Assembly: GCA_050952805.1 (NCBI GenBank)
Contig: JBMNLM010000001.1
Span: 397,713 to 461,712, forward strand
Source: Bacilli bacterium
GTDB lineage: Bacteria; Bacillota_I; Bacilli_A; RFN20; CAG-826
Length of the DNA: 64,000 nucleotides
Direction of reading: 5' to 3'
Shown: piece by piece, positions 1,856-41,783 of the stretch
How positions within the stretch are numbered: position 1 is the stretch's first letter
How the letters are laid out: the number at the start of each line of letters is the position of its first letter
Position numbers and translations under genes: made by a program
The notes under the pieces: generated by a model
The model's input: only the letters and a program-made list of their open reading frames with translations
What the model was told of the DNA's origin: nothing
Databases searched by the model: none

Positions 1856-2524
1856 TTATTCTTGAGCGTTTTCGCTAGTTTCTACTTCTTTAAAGGCTTT
1901 TCCAAAAGGGAGAGTTAAAAGTAGACCGATGTAGTTACCTGCTAATAAGAGTAAGAGATGAAGGATACCTTTTCCAGTAAATAGTTTATGGGAAAGGGAA
2001 ATATACATTAATTCACTAATATAGGGGGAGCTTCCCATAGCGACATAAGCAAAGGCAATTACAAACGTAATTAAATAGTGATGACTCTTCTTCTTTGTTC
2101 CTTTAATTGCTAGTTTCATAATGCCAATACATAAGCCTGTAACGATCGCTAAACCAATAACGCTAAGAGGATGAGCGCTCATTTTTTCCTCTATTAAATA
2201 ATCGACTGTGTTCCCGTATTTATTTCCATAAATTGAGAAGCGAATTAAGTTTCCTAGTAATCCAATCGTTAAAAGACTTACAAAAAAGCCAATTAAGACG
2301 TCGACGATATGCTCGCTTACTTTACCTTCAACGTGGACTGATTCAGTCATAAAGAAATAATTATAAATAAAGACTCCAATTCCGTAAATTAAGCCATATA
2401 CAAGAGCACCAATTAAATAATTATAGTAGTGATAGGCAATGACGTTACCTAGCGCGGCCATTGCAACAATTATTCCATTTACTATGCTTCCTGATATTAC
2501 TTTTAAAACTCTTTTTTTACGCAT
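1856..2524 (-). CDS. Hypothetical polytopic membrane protein
   Basis: ORF with at least 6 predicted hydrophobic helices. The preferred start is ATG at 2522-2524 (MRKKRV), preceded by the RBS AAAGGGGAAA. The longer ORF-track start at 2572 lacks an RBS. Confidence 0.45.
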   Translation of the reverse strand: MRKKRVLKVISGSIVNGIIVAMAALGNVIAYHYYNYLIGALVYGLIYGIGVFIYNYFFMTESVHVEGKVSEHIVDVLIGFFVSLLTIGLLGNLIRFSIYGNKYGNTVDYLIEEKMSAHPLSVIGLAIVTGLCIGIMKLAIKGTKKKSHHYLITFVIAFAYVAMGSSPYISELMYISLSHKLFTGKGILHLLLLLAGNYIGLLLTLPFGKAFKEVETSENAQE

Positions 2525-2639
2525 TTTAATTTTCCCCTTTTTATTACTTTTAACCGCTTTTGAGTATAGCATAATTACACTATTTTTTATATATCACTTG
2601 TGTGTAAATTTTCTCGTGTTTTTATCATACTTTAATCTA

Positions 2640-2668
2640 TTGATTAAGAAACAACGTTATGGTATATT
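2640..2668 (+). promoter_or_regulatory. Sigma-A-type promoter for the riboswitch-antiporter operon
   Basis: -35 TTGATT at 2640-2645, a 17-nt spacer and -10 TATATT at 2663-2668. Confidence 0.5.
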
Positions 2669-2669
2669 C

Positions 2670-2795
2670 GTAGGGAATCTCCGAATCTATAAATTTGAGT
2701 GGGGGACCCAAATTAACTTGGGGTGAATTAACTAGAGTTAAGAGGACACTTACTGTCCTTAACCCGTCAGCTAACCTCATAGGAGTTATTAAGGC
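2670..2795 (+). promoter_or_regulatory. Candidate c-di-AMP riboswitch (ydaO-yuaA/kimA class) in the 5' leader of the CPA2 antiporter gene
   Basis: Ordered conserved blocks GGGGGACCCA (2701-2710), GGGGUGAAUU (2720-2729) and CCCGUCAGCUAACCUCAUAGGAG (2763-2785) match the remembered core of the ydaO motif. The element sits between a promoter and an RBS/ATG at 2813-2828. Identified from memory of the motif, not by a covariance search. Confidence 0.6.
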
Positions 2796-2825
2796 CTTAA
2801 TATTTATAGATTTGGAGGAAAGTGT

Positions 2826-4154
2826 ATGGAATTAATTTTCAAAGTAGCGGTCGTCTTAATCGTTGGTTTTATTGGTGGTCGACTTGCTAGATTACTTAAA
2901 TTGCCTGATGTGTCAGGCTATTTAATTATGGGTCTATTTCTTGGACCATCTTTATCGATCATATTTCGCGGTTACGAAGGGTTTATAACGTCTGATGATC
3001 AACATACGTTAAAGTTTATTAGCGAAATGGCTCTTGCCTTTATTGCCTTTTCAATAGGGAGCGAATTTAACTTTAAACAAGTTAAGAAAATGGGCAAGCA
3101 AATTAACATCATTACGATATTTGAGGTGCTTTTTGCAATACTTGGCGTGTTTATTATCTTATTTTTTATTCCAAAACCAGGGCCAATTATGCCAGATGGT
3201 TATGACCCGTTTACAAAAGAAAACATCGCTTTTGGTCTTGTTTTAGGGTCAATGAGTGCTGCGACGGCGCCGGCGGCAACGCTAATGGTAATTCGTCAAT
3301 ACCGTGCCTATGGGCCTGTTACTAAGTCACTTCTTCCTGTCACTGCCTTAGATGATATTTACGGTATCGTTGCCTTTGGTTTTGCTTTTTCTATAGCACA
3401 AATCCTAACTTCAACGAGTGATATTCCTATTGCACTAATGATTGCAAAACCATTTATTGAAGTAATCGGGTCGGTGCTTATTGGTATGATCCTTGGCTAC
3501 GTTTTATCTAAACTCGCTAACGTGATGGAGAAATCGCGCGATGACTTACAAGTTCTTTCAATCGCCACGATTCTTCTTTCAATTGGCATTATCTATTTAT
3601 TAAATAAATGGTTGAGTCAGTACGCCATCGCGCTTTCTTCCCTGCTTAGTAGTATTACATTAGGAACAATGATTGCGAATCTCGTGAAGAAACCACATAA
3701 CACATTTTCTAGTGTTAACGATTTTACAACGCCGTTTTATGTTCTTTTCTTTACTCTAGCAGGAGCATCACTTGACCTAAGAATTTTAGGACAAAGTGCT
3801 TTAATTGCAATTCTTGCAGTTAGCTACATTTTAGCTAGAGGCTTTGGTAAGTATTTAGGCGCTAGAACAGGGGCAACGATTGCAAAATCAGAAAAAACTG
3901 TGCAAAAATACCTTGGTTTAGCTTTGCTACCCCAAGGTGGGGTATCCCTAGGCCTTCTCGTTATGGTTCAAGCACAGATGCCGGAGTTTTATCCGCTAAT
4001 TTCTACAATAATTATGTTAAGTATCTTGTTTTATGAAACGAGTGGGCCAATTTTTGCTAAAATTGCTATTAGTAAAGCAGGAGAAATTAATGGCCTTGAT
4101 AAACTTGAATTACTTTCAAGTATTGAAGGCATTGAAGCAGTTGAGGAGGTATAA
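2826..4154 (+). CDS. Cation:proton antiporter, CPA2 (Na+/H+ exchanger, Pfam PF00999-like) family, with no fused RCK domain
   Basis: 442-aa ORF with about 12 TM segments. The GYLIMGLFLGPSL and LALLPQGGVSLGL regions are typical of Kef/NapA-type exchangers. RBS GGAGGA 8 nt upstream. Confidence 0.8.
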   Translation: MELIFKVAVVLIVGFIGGRLARLLKLPDVSGYLIMGLFLGPSLSIIFRGYEGFITSDDQHTLKFISEMALAFIAFSIGSEFNFKQVKKMGKQINIITIFEVLFAILGVFIILFFIPKPGPIMPDGYDPFTKENIAFGLVLGSMSAATAPAATLMVIRQYRAYGPVTKSLLPVTALDDIYGIVAFGFAFSIAQILTSTSDIPIALMIAKPFIEVIGSVLIGMILGYVLSKLANVMEKSRDDLQVLSIATILLSIGIIYLLNKWLSQYAIALSSLLSSITLGTMIANLVKKPHNTFSSVNDFTTPFYVLFFTLAGASLDLRILGQSALIAILAVSYILARGFGKYLGARTGATIAKSEKTVQKYLGLALLPQGGVSLGLLVMVQAQMPEFYPLISTIIMLSILFYETSGPIFAKIAISKAGEINGLDKLELLSSIEGIEAVEEV

Positions 4155-4156
4155 TT

Positions 4157-4513
4157 ATGCAAATTCTATTTATTGTTTTAAATGATTTATCACACTTACA
4201 AGAAATTTTAGAAATTTTTATTGAGCAAAAAGTTCGGGGAGCTACAATCCTTGATAGCGAAGGAATGGCAAAAGCCGTTTTAGAATCGCAAGGTTTAAAC
4301 TTTTTGTTAGATGGACCTTTTGCAAAAACTCTACCTGAAAAAGTTAATGGTTCAAAAACCATCTTTACTGTTATTCCTGAAGATGAAAAAGTTGGTGAGG
4401 TAGTCGAGGCTATTCAAAGTGCGCTAACTGATACTGATGAAAAAGTCATTGGTTTTATGTTTACGCTTCCAGTTTCTGGTATTTATCCTTTAAAACCAAA
4501 AAAGACAAAATAA
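4157..4513 (+). CDS. PII-like (GlnB-fold) signalling protein resembling DarA/PstA c-di-AMP receptors
   Basis: 118-aa protein. The N-terminal ILFIVLNDLSHLQEILEIFIEQKVRGATILDSEGMAKA region follows the PII/DarA beta-alpha-beta pattern (compare DarA [37 protein letters not shown]). It starts 3 nt after the antiporter stop. Similarity was judged by eye. Confidence 0.55.
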   Translation: MQILFIVLNDLSHLQEILEIFIEQKVRGATILDSEGMAKAVLESQGLNFLLDGPFAKTLPEKVNGSKTIFTVIPEDEKVGEVVEAIQSALTDTDEKVIGFMFTLPVSGIYPLKPKKTK

Positions 4514-4657
4514 GTTTTAACTATTAATCCTCCTCTTACTTGTTCTTCTTGCTTTCACTTGAAAAGTCATATTATTATCGGCTCAGATTGATTATTTTAT
4601 TTATGATAATCAGTCAAAATAATATCTTATTTTAGAGCGGTTTAGAAAACAAAACAG

Positions 4658-4686
4658 TTGCAAAACCGGCATCAAAGTTAGAAAAT
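4658..4686 (+). promoter_or_regulatory. Candidate promoter for tRNA-Arg
   Basis: -35 TTGCAA at 4658-4663, a 17-nt spacer and -10 GAAAAT at 4681-4686. The tRNA begins 9 nt later. Confidence 0.4.
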
Positions 4687-4694
4687 ATGGCTAT

Positions 4695-4771
4695 GGTGCA
4701 TTAGCTCAGTTGGATAGAGCATTCGCCTCCTAAGCGGAAGGTCCCCTGTTCGAGTCAGGGATGCATCGCCA
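4695..4771 (+). tRNA. tRNA-Arg (anticodon CCU)
   Basis: 77-nt cloverleaf with anticodon loop CUCCUAA, T-arm GTTCGAGTC and a CCA end. Confidence 0.8.
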
Positions 4772-4776
4772 TTAAG

Positions 4777-4804
4777 AAAACGAGAAAATTTCTCGTTTTT
4801 TTTT
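4777..4804. terminator. Bidirectional rho-independent terminator between the convergent tRNA-Arg and tRNA-Pro/polC transcripts
   Basis: Hairpin AAAACGAGA-AAATT-TCTCGTTTT flanked by A- and T-runs. Confidence 0.6.
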
Positions 4805-4812
4805 AATAAAAA

Positions 4813-4889
4813 TGGTCGGAACGATGAGATTTGAACTCACGACCTTCTGGTCCCGAACCAGACGCACTACCAAGCTGTGCTACGTCCCG
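4813..4889 (-). tRNA. tRNA-Pro (anticodon CGG)
   Basis: 77-nt cloverleaf on the reverse complement with anticodon loop UUCGGGA and a CCA end. It is identical to the tRNA at 55262-55338 except for the anticodon stem-loop. Confidence 0.8.
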
Positions 4890-4920
4890 ACAATATACTA
4901 TTTGTAATTATAAATAAGTA

Positions 4921-7900
4921 TTAAAAGAAATCAAATAAATTAAGTTGGTTGGTTTCTGGTAATCCTTTTAACACGCCAAGTTCACGCATTCTGTCAATAT
5001 TTTGTGAATTAAGTTTTGTTCGTTCAACTAAGTCTTGGACACTCGTAAACGGTCCGTCTTTTCTTGCTTCTATAACTGTTACAGCGGTATTTTCTCCTAG
5101 CCCATCAATTGTAATAAAGGGTGGGATCAATTTGCCGTTTTCTTTATCGACAATAAAGTTAAGTGCATCACTTTTATAAAGGTCAATATTTTCAAAAGAA
5201 TAGCCGCGATCTAGCATTTCAAGTGCAATTTGCAAGGTTCTTTTAACATCTTCTTCTTTTTGGTCAGCCTTATCTCGTAATATTTTTTGTGATTCTTCTA
5301 GTCTTTTTCTAATTGCTTTAGTGCCACTAATCATTGCTTGAATATCGTATTGCTTTGAGCGAACGCTAAAGAAAGTCGCGTAATATTCTAGAGGATAATA
5401 AAGTTTAAAGTAGGCAACACGAAACGCCATCATGACGTAGGCTGTAGCGTGCGCTCTTGGGAACAAGTATTTAATCATATTGAAACTATCAATATAGTAA
5501 TTTGGAACACCTTTTTGCCTTAATAAACTTAAATATTGATTTTGAACGCCTCTTCCTTTTCTTACGCTTTCCATAATATTAAAGGCAATACTAGGTTCAA
5601 CTTCTTTTTCGATTAGATATGTCATGATGTCATCACGACATCCAATAACACCGTCTAGATTTGTTTTTCCAGTCTTAATAAGTTTTTCAGCGTTATTTGC
5701 CCAGACATCAGTACCGTGACTTAGTCCTGAAATAATAATTAACTCATTAAATGACTTCGGTCTTGTGTCTTTTAGTAACCTTCTTACAAACGATGTTCCA
5801 AATTCAGGAATACCTAATGCACCAGTTTCTTCTTCTAAATAGTTTTTACTTAGTTTTAATTCTTTTACAGATGAAAATAGTGATAATACTTTTTTATCTC
5901 CTAAAGGAATATCGTTAATGTCAACGCCCGTTAATTCGCTCATCATTTTTAAAGCAAGCGGATCAACGTGACCAAGAAGGTCAAACTTTAAAATGTTGTC
6001 ATGAATTGCATGATAATCAAGGTGTGTTGTTTTCCATGTTGCATCGATATCATTTGCAGGATATTGAACAGGAGTGAAATCATGAATATCAAAATTTTCC
6101 GGCACGATAATGATTCCGCCAGGGTGTTGACCTGTTGTTCTTTTAACTTCATTTATTCCGCTTGCAACATAGTCAATTTGTGCTTTAGGTAAGGTTGATA
6201 AATCATATTTTGCTCGTTCATAAAAGCCAAGAGCAAATCCGTATGCCGTTCTTTCTTTAATTGTATCAATAGTTCCAGCACGGAAAACTTTATCTTCTCC
6301 AAGAAGTTCACGCGTATATTCGTGAGCGCGAGCTTGATAGTCACCGGGGAAGTTTAAGTCAATATCAGGAACTTTATCGGCTTTAAAACCTAGGAACGTT
6401 TCAAAAGGAATATTTTGCCCGTCACTAATCAAAGGTGTATCGCACAGTGGACACTTCTTAGGAGGTAGGTCAAAACCACTTTTATAGTCTCCTTCTGGTT
6501 CAAAGTCTGTATATTTACAATTTGGACAACGATAGTGCGGTTTAAGAGGGTTAACTTCGGTAATTCCTGCCATAGTCGCGACAAAACTAGATCCAACTGA
6601 ACCTCTAGAACCTACGACATAACCATCATCGTTTGCCTTTTTAACAATTTTATATGACAAATAGTAAATAACGGCGTAGCCATTTGAAATAATCCCTTCA
6701 AGTTCGCGATCTAATCTTTGTTTAACGATAAATGGTAAATTTTCGCCATATAATTTATGGGCATTTTCAAAAACTAAATCATGAAGAAGGACGTCAACAT
6801 TTTCAATTTCAGGCGTATAGAGCTTATTTTTTAGCGGTCTAACACTTTCGATTTGATTAGCGATTAAATGCGTGTTTTCAATAACGTATTCTTTTGCTTC
6901 TTCAAGTGAGAAAATTTCTGGTTTTACAAAAGCATCTAACATTTCTTGCGTTGAGCGATAATGTTGATCAGGATTTTCAAAAGGCGCCATATTATCTCTT
7001 TCAAAAGGATAGAGGGCGTGTGGAACTTTACCAACAGCTTTAGCAGAAATTAAAACGTCTCTAAAAATCTTATCTTCAGGGTTTTCATAGTGAACGTCAC
7101 CTGTGACCACAAGAGGTTTTCCTGCAATTCGTGCCGCTTTTGCAATGTCTTTTAGAAAAATGTAGAGTTTTTCTTCACTTTCAATTTTATTCATATGTAG
7201 TAAATGTGAATAGTTTGCAGGCGGTTGAATTTCTATATAATCATAAAAACTCATAACGTCTACGAGTTTCTTTTCGCTTCGCGTCATAGCGGTTTGGAAT
7301 ATTTCTCCGTTAAAACAGGCAGGACTAATAAGAAGATTTTCACGATATTTCTCAAGTATAGTTCTAGGAATTTTTGGAACTTCTGCTAAGTAGTCAATAT
7401 GCGAAAGGGAAATTAGTTCATATAAATCTTTTATTCCTTGTTGGTTTTTCGCTAAAGCAATAACGTGATAAGGCATAAGATGCTTATAAATTACGTTATC
7501 AATTTTTAGCGAACTTAAATCTAAGTGTCGTAAGTTTTGATTATCTAAAGTAAGTTTAACGAGCATTGCTTGCCAAACTTCATTTAGCACTTGTGCGTCA
7601 TAATCTGCCCTGTGAGCTTGCGAACGATCATAAATTACTTCAAAGTTTCTTGCCAAAGCTCCTAAATTATGACTTCCTGATTCTGGAAATAAGTAGCGCG
7701 ACAAGGGGAGCGTATCAATTACAGGATTATTTAGAGGTTTTCTCCCCATATCGATTAAAGCTTGATTTAAAAAGCCAACATCAAATTGTGCGTTATGAGA
7801 AACAAGGATTGTGTCGCCAATAAAAGCTAAAATTCTGTCAATTACCGTTTCAATTAACGGTTCATTGTATAGCATCGCCGGTGTAATTCCTGTTAATTCA

Positions 7901-36824: not shown

Positions 36825-36851
36825 ACTCTAATTATAATATAAAAAAAGTTT

Positions 36852-36957
36852 GGCAACTTGCTATTTTCCCCGAAACGGATATCTTCGCCGCTACTGTGCT
36901 TAACTTCTGTGTTCGAGATGGGAACAGGTGTGTCCACAGCGCCATCGTCACCAAACC
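36852..36957 (-). rRNA. rrf: 5S ribosomal RNA
   Basis: The reverse complement begins GGTTTGGTGACGATGGCG...CCCATCTCGAACACAGAAGTTAAGC, which matches the conserved 5S sequence. Confidence 0.85.
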
Positions 36958-37045
36958 ATTTTGAGCCTTATTCGCTCAAAACTAAATACTATCTTAACAT
37001 GTCTTTCTAAAAATTAATAGTTAATTTTCGCATATATTAACGAAG

Positions 37046-39933
<2,888 letters not shown>

Positions 39934-40225
39934 TTTCTTTATTTGTTGTTAATAAATGCGTTTAATAAAATCAACTTGGTAATTTTTGTTTGTCTCAATC
40001 GCTTTCTTAGTAAAAAAAACGACTTAAACAGAAAGAACATGTTTTTTTATAGTATTTAGTTTTCAAAGAACAAGGTTTTGAGCAACTTAATCGCTCAAAA
40101 CTAAACAGATATACGAACGTCTAATACGAATTAGCATTAGTTTCTTTTTAAAGACGTATTCTAAGAAAACGTCTAGGTTTTTGTTTGTACAATTGTTTGG
40201 ATATTTTTCCAAACGGTTTCTCCAT

Positions 40226-41783
<1,558 letters not shown>

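Follow-up and report, generated by a model that had tools for sequence, protein, structure and literature searches.

A conserved gene pair encoding a cation/proton antiporter and a PII-like protein behind a c-di-AMP riboswitch in a Bacilli bacterium

The stretch of DNA analysed here (the window) comprises 64,000 nucleotides of contig JBMNLM010000001.1 from a Bacilli bacterium (GTDB lineage RFN20; CAG-826) and carries, on its forward strand, a cyclic di-AMP (c-di-AMP) riboswitch followed by two open reading frames (ORFs) that encode a cation/proton antiporter and a small PII-like protein. The aptamer is a full-length Rfam match to RF00379 at 2669-2800 (+), scoring 79.2 bits against a gathering score of 38. 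A putative promoter at 2640-2668 (+), consisting of TTGATT, a 17-nt spacer and a TG-extended TATATT, was located by consensus scan and direct reading as a match to consensus only, and ends 1 nt ahead of the aptamer match. The 442-aa antiporter ORF (2826-4154, +) begins 25 nt 3′ of the aptamer and is preceded by the ribosome binding site (RBS) GGAGGA at 2814-2819. The ATG of the 118-aa PII-like ORF (4157-4513, +) lies at 4157, 2 nt after the antiporter stop codon, which ends at 4154, and its RBS (GAGGAGG) is located within the 3′ end of the antiporter gene. An earlier note on this DNA had named these three parts from the letters alone; all are present by Rfam, Pfam and ORF analysis, the upstream element is a genuine c-di-AMP aptamer, and the small-protein sequence quoted in the note is the translation of ORF 4157-4513, although the gap between the genes is 2 nt by coordinates and not the 3 nt that it gave. 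Co-transcription of the two genes, as proposed there, is supported, and the PII-like gene is probably also translationally coupled to the antiporter gene. With moderate confidence, we regard the pair as a two-gene module in which an antiporter has its own PII-like regulatory subunit, and which has been placed under a c-di-AMP riboswitch in the lineage of the window.

The 442-aa protein matched Pfam Na_H_Exchanger over residues 12-401 (E 2.2e-28), and Pfam gave no RCK/TrkA domain in it at E <= 1, consistent with its earlier description as an exchanger without a fused RCK/KTN domain. The single sequence had no relative among PDB sequences, and the antiporter family profile found a sole sequence relative there, the CPA1 protein PaNhaP (8e-07). 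An AlphaFold model made with database homologues (predicted local distance difference test, pLDDT, 77.7) matched NapA (7.9e-10), MjNhaP1, PaNhaP, NHA2, SOS1 and KefC in Foldseek, so that the cation/proton antiporter (CPA) fold is secure; SbtA was absent among the 50 Foldseek matches listed for this model. In the alignment with PaNhaP, the sequence ALDDIYG (D176-D177; codons at 3351-3356, +) falls on the ND ion-binding motif and SAATAPAA on the unwound ATDPA segment. D176, D177, R338 and K342 are invariant in close relatives, and R338 or K342 is a candidate for the basic residue that partners the DD motif from the next core helix in electrogenic exchangers (PMC11150392). ND and DD motifs mark Na+/H+ exchangers, DD together with a lysine marks electrogenic ones, and QD is found in Kef/KEA-type K+/H+ exchangers (PMC11150392). 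The DD motif therefore makes a Na+(Li+,K+)/H+ exchanger likelier than a Kef-like K+ exporter, and the protein is most likely an electrogenic Na+(K+)/H+ exchanger of the NhaA/NapA fold. The label 'CPA2' that it had been given held only in part: the DD motif speaks for it, whereas the NCBIfam CPA2 model TIGR00932 scored 46.2 bits, far below its cutoff of 238.3, and the PDB relative is a CPA1 protein.

A scan of one genome per species yielded 525 loci with a relative of the small protein, and the best 80 of these 525 were analysed (L-numbers are labels of related loci). The gene immediately upstream of the PII-like gene encodes an antiporter homologue in 76 of the 80, or 76 of the 78 informative loci, two of the four exceptions being contigs that end just upstream of the PII-like gene. 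The stop-to-start gap does not exceed 4 nt in 46 of the 76 pairs and 40 nt in 75. All six distant members sampled (28-36% identity) adjoin a Na_H_Exchanger gene, the PII-like gene coming first in five (sometimes with a 4-nt overlap) and the antiporter gene in one, and paired loci span Acholeplasmatales, Clostridia, Limnochordia, a spirochaete and one locus beside an F420-ligase gene. Adjacency that survives reversal of the gene order across lineages is strong evidence of joint function. With 76 of 78 informative loci for the pair and 52 of 66 for the riboswitch, the arrangement recurs far more often than chance would allow. Purifying selection acts strongly on the antiporter gene (omega 0.06-0.09) and on the PII-like gene (omega 0.05-0.08). 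The earlier note had made its proposal depend on conservation of the gene pair in relatives, and the pair is kept in the near and the distant sample alike. The only two relatives that truly lack an adjacent antiporter gene are L067 (5001-5351), with a chemotaxis receptor and a VCA0040-like membrane protein as neighbours, and L079 (4962-5348), with an HDOD protein and a P-type ATPase.

The small-protein family is common: grouped at 50% identity, the hits of a search without a word index gave about 500 clusters, a few of them false positives, among which are the repeat proteins P0225 and P0245. No fused antiporter-PII protein was found among the family members examined. Two longer antiporter homologues taken up as possible fusions (P0324 and P0387) have no PII part, and P0148 was rejected as an interaction-type fusion, being either a PrmC-PII fusion or a gene-calling artefact. 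In a distant clade (L068, L069, L070, L072, L076 and L080; transporter at about 3790-4960) the DD motif is replaced by NG or DG, which removes the aspartate essential to known exchangers; the PII-like partner is kept and the riboswitch is absent. The transporters of the clade may have a different substrate or mechanism.

Single loci vary in other ways. At L004 (2604-4600) the antiporter gene is interrupted by an IS21-family element with an IstB-like ATPase and a Mu-transposase-like ORF, and the riboswitch and the PII-like gene are intact despite the split. At L078 (3757-6553) the PII-like gene stands between two Na_H_Exchanger genes, and at the distant locus L109 (63-1400) a gene for a DUF1576 membrane protein lies upstream of the PII-like/antiporter pair. 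A fluoride riboswitch is found about 2 kb downstream of the PII-like gene at L073 (7122-7191, -), a metagenome-assembled genome of Izemoplasmatales.

The 118-aa protein matched Pfam P-II (PF00543) with 25.5 bits against a cutoff of 25; 68 of 79 diverse family members matched P-II at E <= 0.01, and no NCBIfam model matched the window protein. The AlphaFold model of a single chain, built on 30 homologues (pLDDT 76.9), has the order beta-alpha-beta, loop, beta-alpha-beta, that is, a double ferredoxin-like core. Its T-loop, between beta2 (30-33) and beta3 (67-73), spans 33 residues (34-66; codons at 4256-4354, +) with a helix at 35-44, and is about 9 residues longer than that of GlnB in the profile alignment; the B-loop has about 7 residues in the model. 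The T-loop is strongly conserved, with S34, G36, M37, A40, G46, F55, S66, K67 and T68 invariant among 30 relatives. The best Foldseek match in the PDB was PotN (7o4x, E 7.9e-06, 22% identity), and other matches were SbtB (several entries, including the c-di-AMP complex 7obj), TT1020, GlnK3 and cyanobacterial PII. Layout, matches and loop length agree with the PII-type fold and enlarged T-loop that had been suggested for this protein.

Profile comparisons were made against single reference sequences of GlnB, SbtB and DarA, and their results are leads and not tests. The profile of 79 family members aligned with E. coli GlnB over its full length (100 columns, 83% probability), with SbtB only partially, over the first 41 residues alone (12.7%), and with DarA at 1.4%; a narrower profile of 30 sequences matched none of the single GlnB, SbtB and DarA sequences. 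In the GlnB alignment, G27, T29, G35 and G89 of GlnB fall on G28, T30, G36 and G99 of the window protein, and the conserved K67 at the T-loop's end lies at or beside the position of GlnB K58. Canonical PII proteins are defined by the B-loop TGxxGDGKI, Q39 and K58 (PMC4316997). This B-loop is not found in the window protein, where DEKVIGFMF aligns with GKIGDGKIF and G99 (GlnB G89) is the sole position retained. Q39 of GlnB aligns with the invariant A40, K90 with a phenylalanine, and no arginines are aligned with R101 and R103.

PstA proteins are in turn defined by a short T′-loop with TKLxxxGGFLxxGNTT and a long B′-loop (PMC4316997). The earlier note had likened the 118-aa protein to this DarA/PstA type and named Pfam models for both families as a check. 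P-II was reached, just above its cutoff, and the DarA/PstA c-di-AMP receptor family was not, either by the window protein at E <= 1 or by any of 79 relatives at E <= 0.01. Since the sequence of the window protein holds neither GGFL nor GNTT, its loop lengths are the opposite of those of PstA and the profile similarity to DarA is near 1%, this likeness was abandoned. Pfam CutA was likewise matched neither by the window protein nor by the 79 relatives, and a CGPxGC motif is absent from the window protein. The PII loop pattern thus occurs here with neither the PstA nor the canonical motif, which points to a distinct PII-like subfamily whose ligand is not readable from sequence. On the evidence of sequence and model, the protein is a separate, uncharacterised subfamily of the PII superfamily that appears nearer to canonical PII, SbtB and PotN than to DarA/PstA.

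A covariance model built from 11 aptamers of the family placed a c-di-AMP aptamer immediately ahead of the antiporter gene in 52 of the 66 genome loci with enough upstream DNA, and ahead of the pair in every one of the 23 informative metagenome loci, leaving 14 of the 66 with the pair and no riboswitch. It is absent from the Acholeplasma laidlawii/oculi/granularum group, the distant NG/DG clade and the distant loci scanned, and Rfam confirmed this, giving no match of any kind in the leaders of riboswitch-less relatives or of the distant loci scanned. Because the pair occurs without it, also at distant loci, the riboswitch appears as an add-on to an older two-gene module, and, the NG/DG clade being without one, it is found solely with DD-type transporters. 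The family covariance model scored the window aptamer at 127.8 bits, and the aptamer core is intact, with P1 formed by CUCC (2679-2682) and GGAG (2782-2785); the Rfam score of 79.2 bits equals the minimum among 11 aptamers of relatives to which Rfam was applied. Read by eye, the pseudoknot of relatives is either CUUAAU/AUUAAG or CUUGGU/ACCAAG, which is covariation, and the loop CUUACU (2747-2755) of the window and L001 makes 4 pairs with the tail AUUAAG (2789-2794) instead of 6. The weakened pseudoknot may lower ligand affinity in the window subclade.

Most relatives have a terminator, made of a GC-rich hairpin and 5-8 U, immediately behind the conserved pseudoknot tail AUUAAG. No terminator was found between 2800 and 2826 in the window, and L001, L002 and L004 are likewise without one. 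In the window leader, the strand 2678-2694 (UCUCCGAAUCUAUAAAU, +), which comprises the 5′ strand of P1, the CCGAAU core and the 5′ half of P2, can form 17 contiguous pairs with 2802-2818 (AUUUAUAGAUUUGGAGG, +), the greater part of a 3′ arm at 2802-2819 that includes the RBS GGAGGA (2814-2819), as seen in the minimum free energy fold, in duplex calculations and in pair counts on 5 distinct leaders. The unconstrained fold has a free energy of -48.6 kcal/mol against -28.8 kcal/mol with the aptamer enforced, and the RBS, about 0% unpaired when the ensemble is left free, becomes about 98% unpaired with the aptamer enforced. Across the 5 distinct leaders the helix is 90% paired, compared with 39-60% when one strand is slid. 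One compensatory exchange (U-A to C-G) occurs in the helix, in L002 and L004, and the 3′ arm is identical at 18 of 18 positions between the window and L001, where adjacent leader bases differ and the synonymous divergence (pS) of the two genes is 0.52-0.56. A sequestering helix of this kind was rejected as a general property of the family: pairing of the 5′ strand with the RBS averaged -12.2 kcal/mol for matched and -11.2 kcal/mol for mismatched sequences, and the long helix is specific to the window subclade.

As the two folds are mutually exclusive, ligand binding should free the RBS, and the folding model predicts that the window leader is an ON-type c-di-AMP switch. The kdp riboswitch, an aptamer followed by a terminator, is a tested transcriptional OFF switch (PMC6488665), a Dehalobacter c-di-AMP riboswitch is OFF in vitro (PMC9337991), and the natural output of the class has been called OFF, a comparable stem having been engineered to invert it (PMC11963983). 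The terminator layout of the relatives, as in kdp, implies by precedent that their operon is off at high c-di-AMP and would be expressed when it is low, together with the K+ importers. Such expression would suit the extrusion of Na+ under osmotic or salt stress better than a K+ exporter of the CpaA/KhtT kind that c-di-AMP activates, with which it agrees poorly. The leaders of L003 and L006-L009 (e.g. L006, 3511-3690) carry a terminator together with a shorter helix between the 5′ strand and the RBS, and the effects of the two would be opposite in polarity if they did not together make a band-pass filter; such a filter, in which high c-di-AMP would terminate transcription and very low c-di-AMP would leave translation blocked, is speculative.

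Among known systems, SbtA-SbtB offers the best analogy, as the earlier note had held, because SbtB is among the top structural matches. In both, a PII-like gene adjoins the gene of a secondary transporter with core and gate domains, and the canonical GDGK B-loop, absent from the window protein, is not known from SbtB either. The partner in the window is a CPA-fold antiporter, whereas SbtA is a 5+5 ASBT-like trimer; the proteins share about 14% identity, and the window protein has a longer T-loop and no C-terminal CGPxGC redox loop, a feature that only part of the SbtB homologues conserve (PMC8352866). No riboswitch was found reported for sbtAB in the SbtB literature consulted for the comparison. 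SbtB binds AMP, ADP, ATP, cAMP and c-di-AMP (PMC8654305). Canonical PII proteins and GlnK-AmtB resemble the window system in that P-II is the sole Pfam family reached, in the full-length profile alignment to GlnB and in the principle of a T-loop that plugs a membrane transporter, but GlnB and GlnK differ from the window protein in having TGxxGDGKI, Q39 and a T-loop about 9 residues shorter, and the window partner is a cation/proton antiporter and not an ammonium channel. PotN, the top Foldseek match (7o4x), is likewise a Firmicutes PII-like protein linked to a transporter, but it was studied with PotA, a subunit of a polyamine ABC transporter (PMC9692440), and has no significant sequence match with the window-family profile.

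The KhtT-KhtU and CpaA systems also combine a cation/proton antiporter with a cytoplasmic regulatory module and a link to c-di-AMP. Their regulator is an RCK domain, fused in CpaA and separate in KhtT, whereas the proposed regulator in the window has a PII fold. Their c-di-AMP activation is at the protein level, with no report of either system behind a c-di-AMP riboswitch; binding of c-di-AMP to CpaA speeds K+ export (PMC6488665). Kef-type K+/H+ exchangers differ in carrying QD in place of DD (PMC11150392). DarA/PstA shares with the window protein the status of a small ferredoxin-like protein of the wider PII superfamily, but the loop lengths are reversed, TKLxxxGGFLxxGNTT is absent and there is no Pfam or profile similarity. 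The riboswitches of kimA, ktrAB and kdpFABC have the same RF00379 aptamer, regulate cation-homeostasis genes and share the aptamer-then-terminator layout with most relatives of the window locus; the genes regulated in the window encode an antiporter and a PII-like protein and not a K+ importer. The tested natural c-di-AMP riboswitches in the literature consulted are OFF switches (PMC6488665, PMC11963983), whereas the platform of the window is an RBS-sequestering helix and is predicted to be ON.

In the mechanism that we propose for the module, the PII-like protein would form a trimer and bind a small ligand between subunits at the T-loop's base, the likeliest ligand being an adenine nucleotide and c-di-AMP being a possible but unproven one. 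Ligand binding would order the long, conserved and partly hydrophobic T-loop (FLLDGPF), which could then enter the antiporter's cytoplasmic funnel or inter-domain cleft, between the core and dimerisation domains, and halt the elevator movement, so that transport would be gated as in GlnK-AmtB and SbtB-SbtA. Both of these are precedents for a plug (PMC8352866; bioRxiv 10.1101/2023.08.10.552651), and the T-loop of SbtB enters the cytoplasmic cleft of SbtA (PMC8352866). In relatives the operon would be off at high c-di-AMP, placing it among genes expressed under K+ limitation or osmotic stress, and in the window subclade the terminator has been replaced by an RBS-hiding helix, which would give translational activation by c-di-AMP. 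We infer physical interaction, plug, ligand, ion specificity and switch polarity alike.

Several points weigh against this interpretation. The P-II match of the window protein is marginal, only 0.5 bits over the cutoff, the pLDDT of the T-loop is low (54-69), and the 118-aa protein, alone or as a 30-sequence profile, has no significant sequence relative in the PDB, its matches there (CBS-domain proteins and an enoyl-CoA hydratase) being at chance level. Nucleotide binding is not assured, because the canonical PII nucleotide motif is missing. The solved CPA antiporters KefC and SLC9C1 are dimers (PMC11150392), whereas PII proteins and the membrane partner SbtA are trimers (PMC8352866), and a plug would need an unusual stoichiometry or oligomer. 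No antiterminator is evident by folding in the terminator-type leaders, so the OFF polarity of the relatives rests on precedent; it conflicts with the ON polarity predicted for the window, and one reading, if not both, may be mistaken. Interaction, ligand binding and transport rest on inference.

The earlier note had gone further and proposed that the same messenger controls the transporter at the RNA and the protein level, the small protein being itself a c-di-AMP receptor. For this, SbtB, a close structural match (7obj), binds c-di-AMP in its normal nucleotide cleft (PMC8654305), the operon stands under a c-di-AMP aptamer in most informative loci (52 of 66), and dual RNA and protein control by c-di-AMP has a precedent in KimA, to judge from the title of a reference in PMC9337991. 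The protein is not of the DarA/PstA type, however, and residue-level support for c-di-AMP binding was not obtained. The occurrence of the pair without the riboswitch, in 14 of 66 loci and at distant loci with no Rfam match, indicates that the partnership of the proteins is older than, and independent of, RNA control by c-di-AMP. Moreover, if the riboswitch is OFF, activation of the protein by c-di-AMP would act only when little protein is made, and we consider such double control unlikely. A stronger candidate, though one to which we give less than even weight, is that the PII-like subunit reports the energy state (ATP/ADP/AMP) or another metabolite, in the manner of PotN and SbtB, and so ties the activity of the antiporter to the energy supply, and that c-di-AMP acts through the RNA alone. 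PotN, the top Foldseek match, belongs to a Firmicutes PII subfamily that senses energy state, according to a title cited in PMC9692440, G28 and T30 of beta2, G36 where the T-loop begins, K67 and G99 align with G27, T29, G35, the K58 region and G89 of GlnB, and the pair is widespread without the riboswitch. The phosphate-binding residues are missing, however (K90 replaced by phenylalanine, no GDGK, no arginines for R101 and R103). On this analysis, an adenylate energy signal would be at least as likely a ligand as c-di-AMP.

That the small protein is not a regulator of the antiporter at all and has a role of its own, such as CutA-like cation tolerance or action on another target, is the least probable of the alternatives, in our view very unlikely. 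The gene does occur without an adjacent antiporter in L067 and L079, but adjacency holds in 76 of 78 informative loci and in all six distant ones despite reversal of order, often with gaps of a few nucleotides, and Pfam CutA was not matched. Decay of the window riboswitch to a remnant, which would leave the operon in effect constitutive or weakly expressed, is somewhat less improbable and still quite unlikely. An Rfam score equal to the lowest among 11 relatives, the 4 pseudoknot pairs in place of 6, the lack of a terminator and an alternative fold whose stability exceeds that of the aptamer secondary structure by about 20 kcal/mol would all suit a remnant. Against this stand the intact aptamer core (127.8 bits by the family model), the 3′ arm unchanged from L001 at 18 of 18 positions and the compensatory change in L002 and L004; conservation of the helix despite a pS of about 0.5 suggests selection on a working expression platform. 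It is doubtful, though conceivable, that the locus combines the first gating of a cation/proton antiporter by a PII-superfamily protein, in place of the RCK domains of CpaA and KhtTU, with the first natural ON c-di-AMP riboswitch, in which locking of P1 by c-di-AMP would free the RBS from the 17-bp helix.

PII proteins are among the most widespread signalling proteins. The literature consulted names as their membrane partners AmtB, SbtA, the nitrate transporter NrtBCD and, in the case of PotN, PotA. No description of a PII-like/cation-proton antiporter pair, or of the arrangement of riboswitch, antiporter and PII-like protein, was found in the full-text literature searched, which leaves most subscription journals outside its coverage. 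PII-type plugging of a transporter is already known, as is dual RNA and protein control by c-di-AMP, which is reported for KimA; new here are the class of partner, a PII subfamily of its own and, possibly, the switch polarity. If the module is as proposed, Na+/H+-type antiporters would form a new class of PII partners and a second route, besides RCK domains, would exist for the control of cation/proton exchangers by metabolites or second messengers. Family members are at present annotated only as 'hypothetical' or 'P-II nitrogen regulator', which misleads. Through the riboswitch the module is connected with the regulation of ion and osmotic balance by c-di-AMP in the wall-less Acholeplasmatales. 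If confirmed, the window leader would provide in nature an ON switch like the one that had to be engineered for c-di-AMP biosensors (PMC11963983), and were the PII-like protein to bind c-di-AMP as well, as SbtB does, the exchanger would be induced and also gated by one messenger.

Between 4513 and 4695 the scan gave no terminator-like site, and the region 3′ of the PII-like gene has no significant RNA structure (z = -1.5). A tRNA-Arg(CCU) gene follows at 4695-4771 (+; ARAGORN), and the first obvious terminator 3′ of the operon is a hairpin with a run of 8 T at 4780-4804, identified by direct reading, where the operon presumably ends; the tRNA-Arg(CCU) might be co-transcribed with it. A tRNA-Pro(CGG) gene on the minus strand and the tRNA-Arg(CCU) gene on the plus strand converge on this hairpin and T-run (region 4695-4889). 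On the other side, a divergent gene at 1856-2572 (-) encodes a 238-aa membrane protein whose only match, to formate/nitrite transporters, stays below threshold at 31 bits (cutoff 34.6). The same locus is also present on a 163-kb metagenome contig, and the gene for the 238-aa protein adjoins the locus on the other contigs that carry it. Elsewhere in the window, a complete rRNA operon (16S, 23S, 5S) lies at 36848-41782 (-), and the other genes scanned are housekeeping genes, encoding PolC, an M50 protease, Dxr, topoisomerase I, Ffh, FakA and UvrA.

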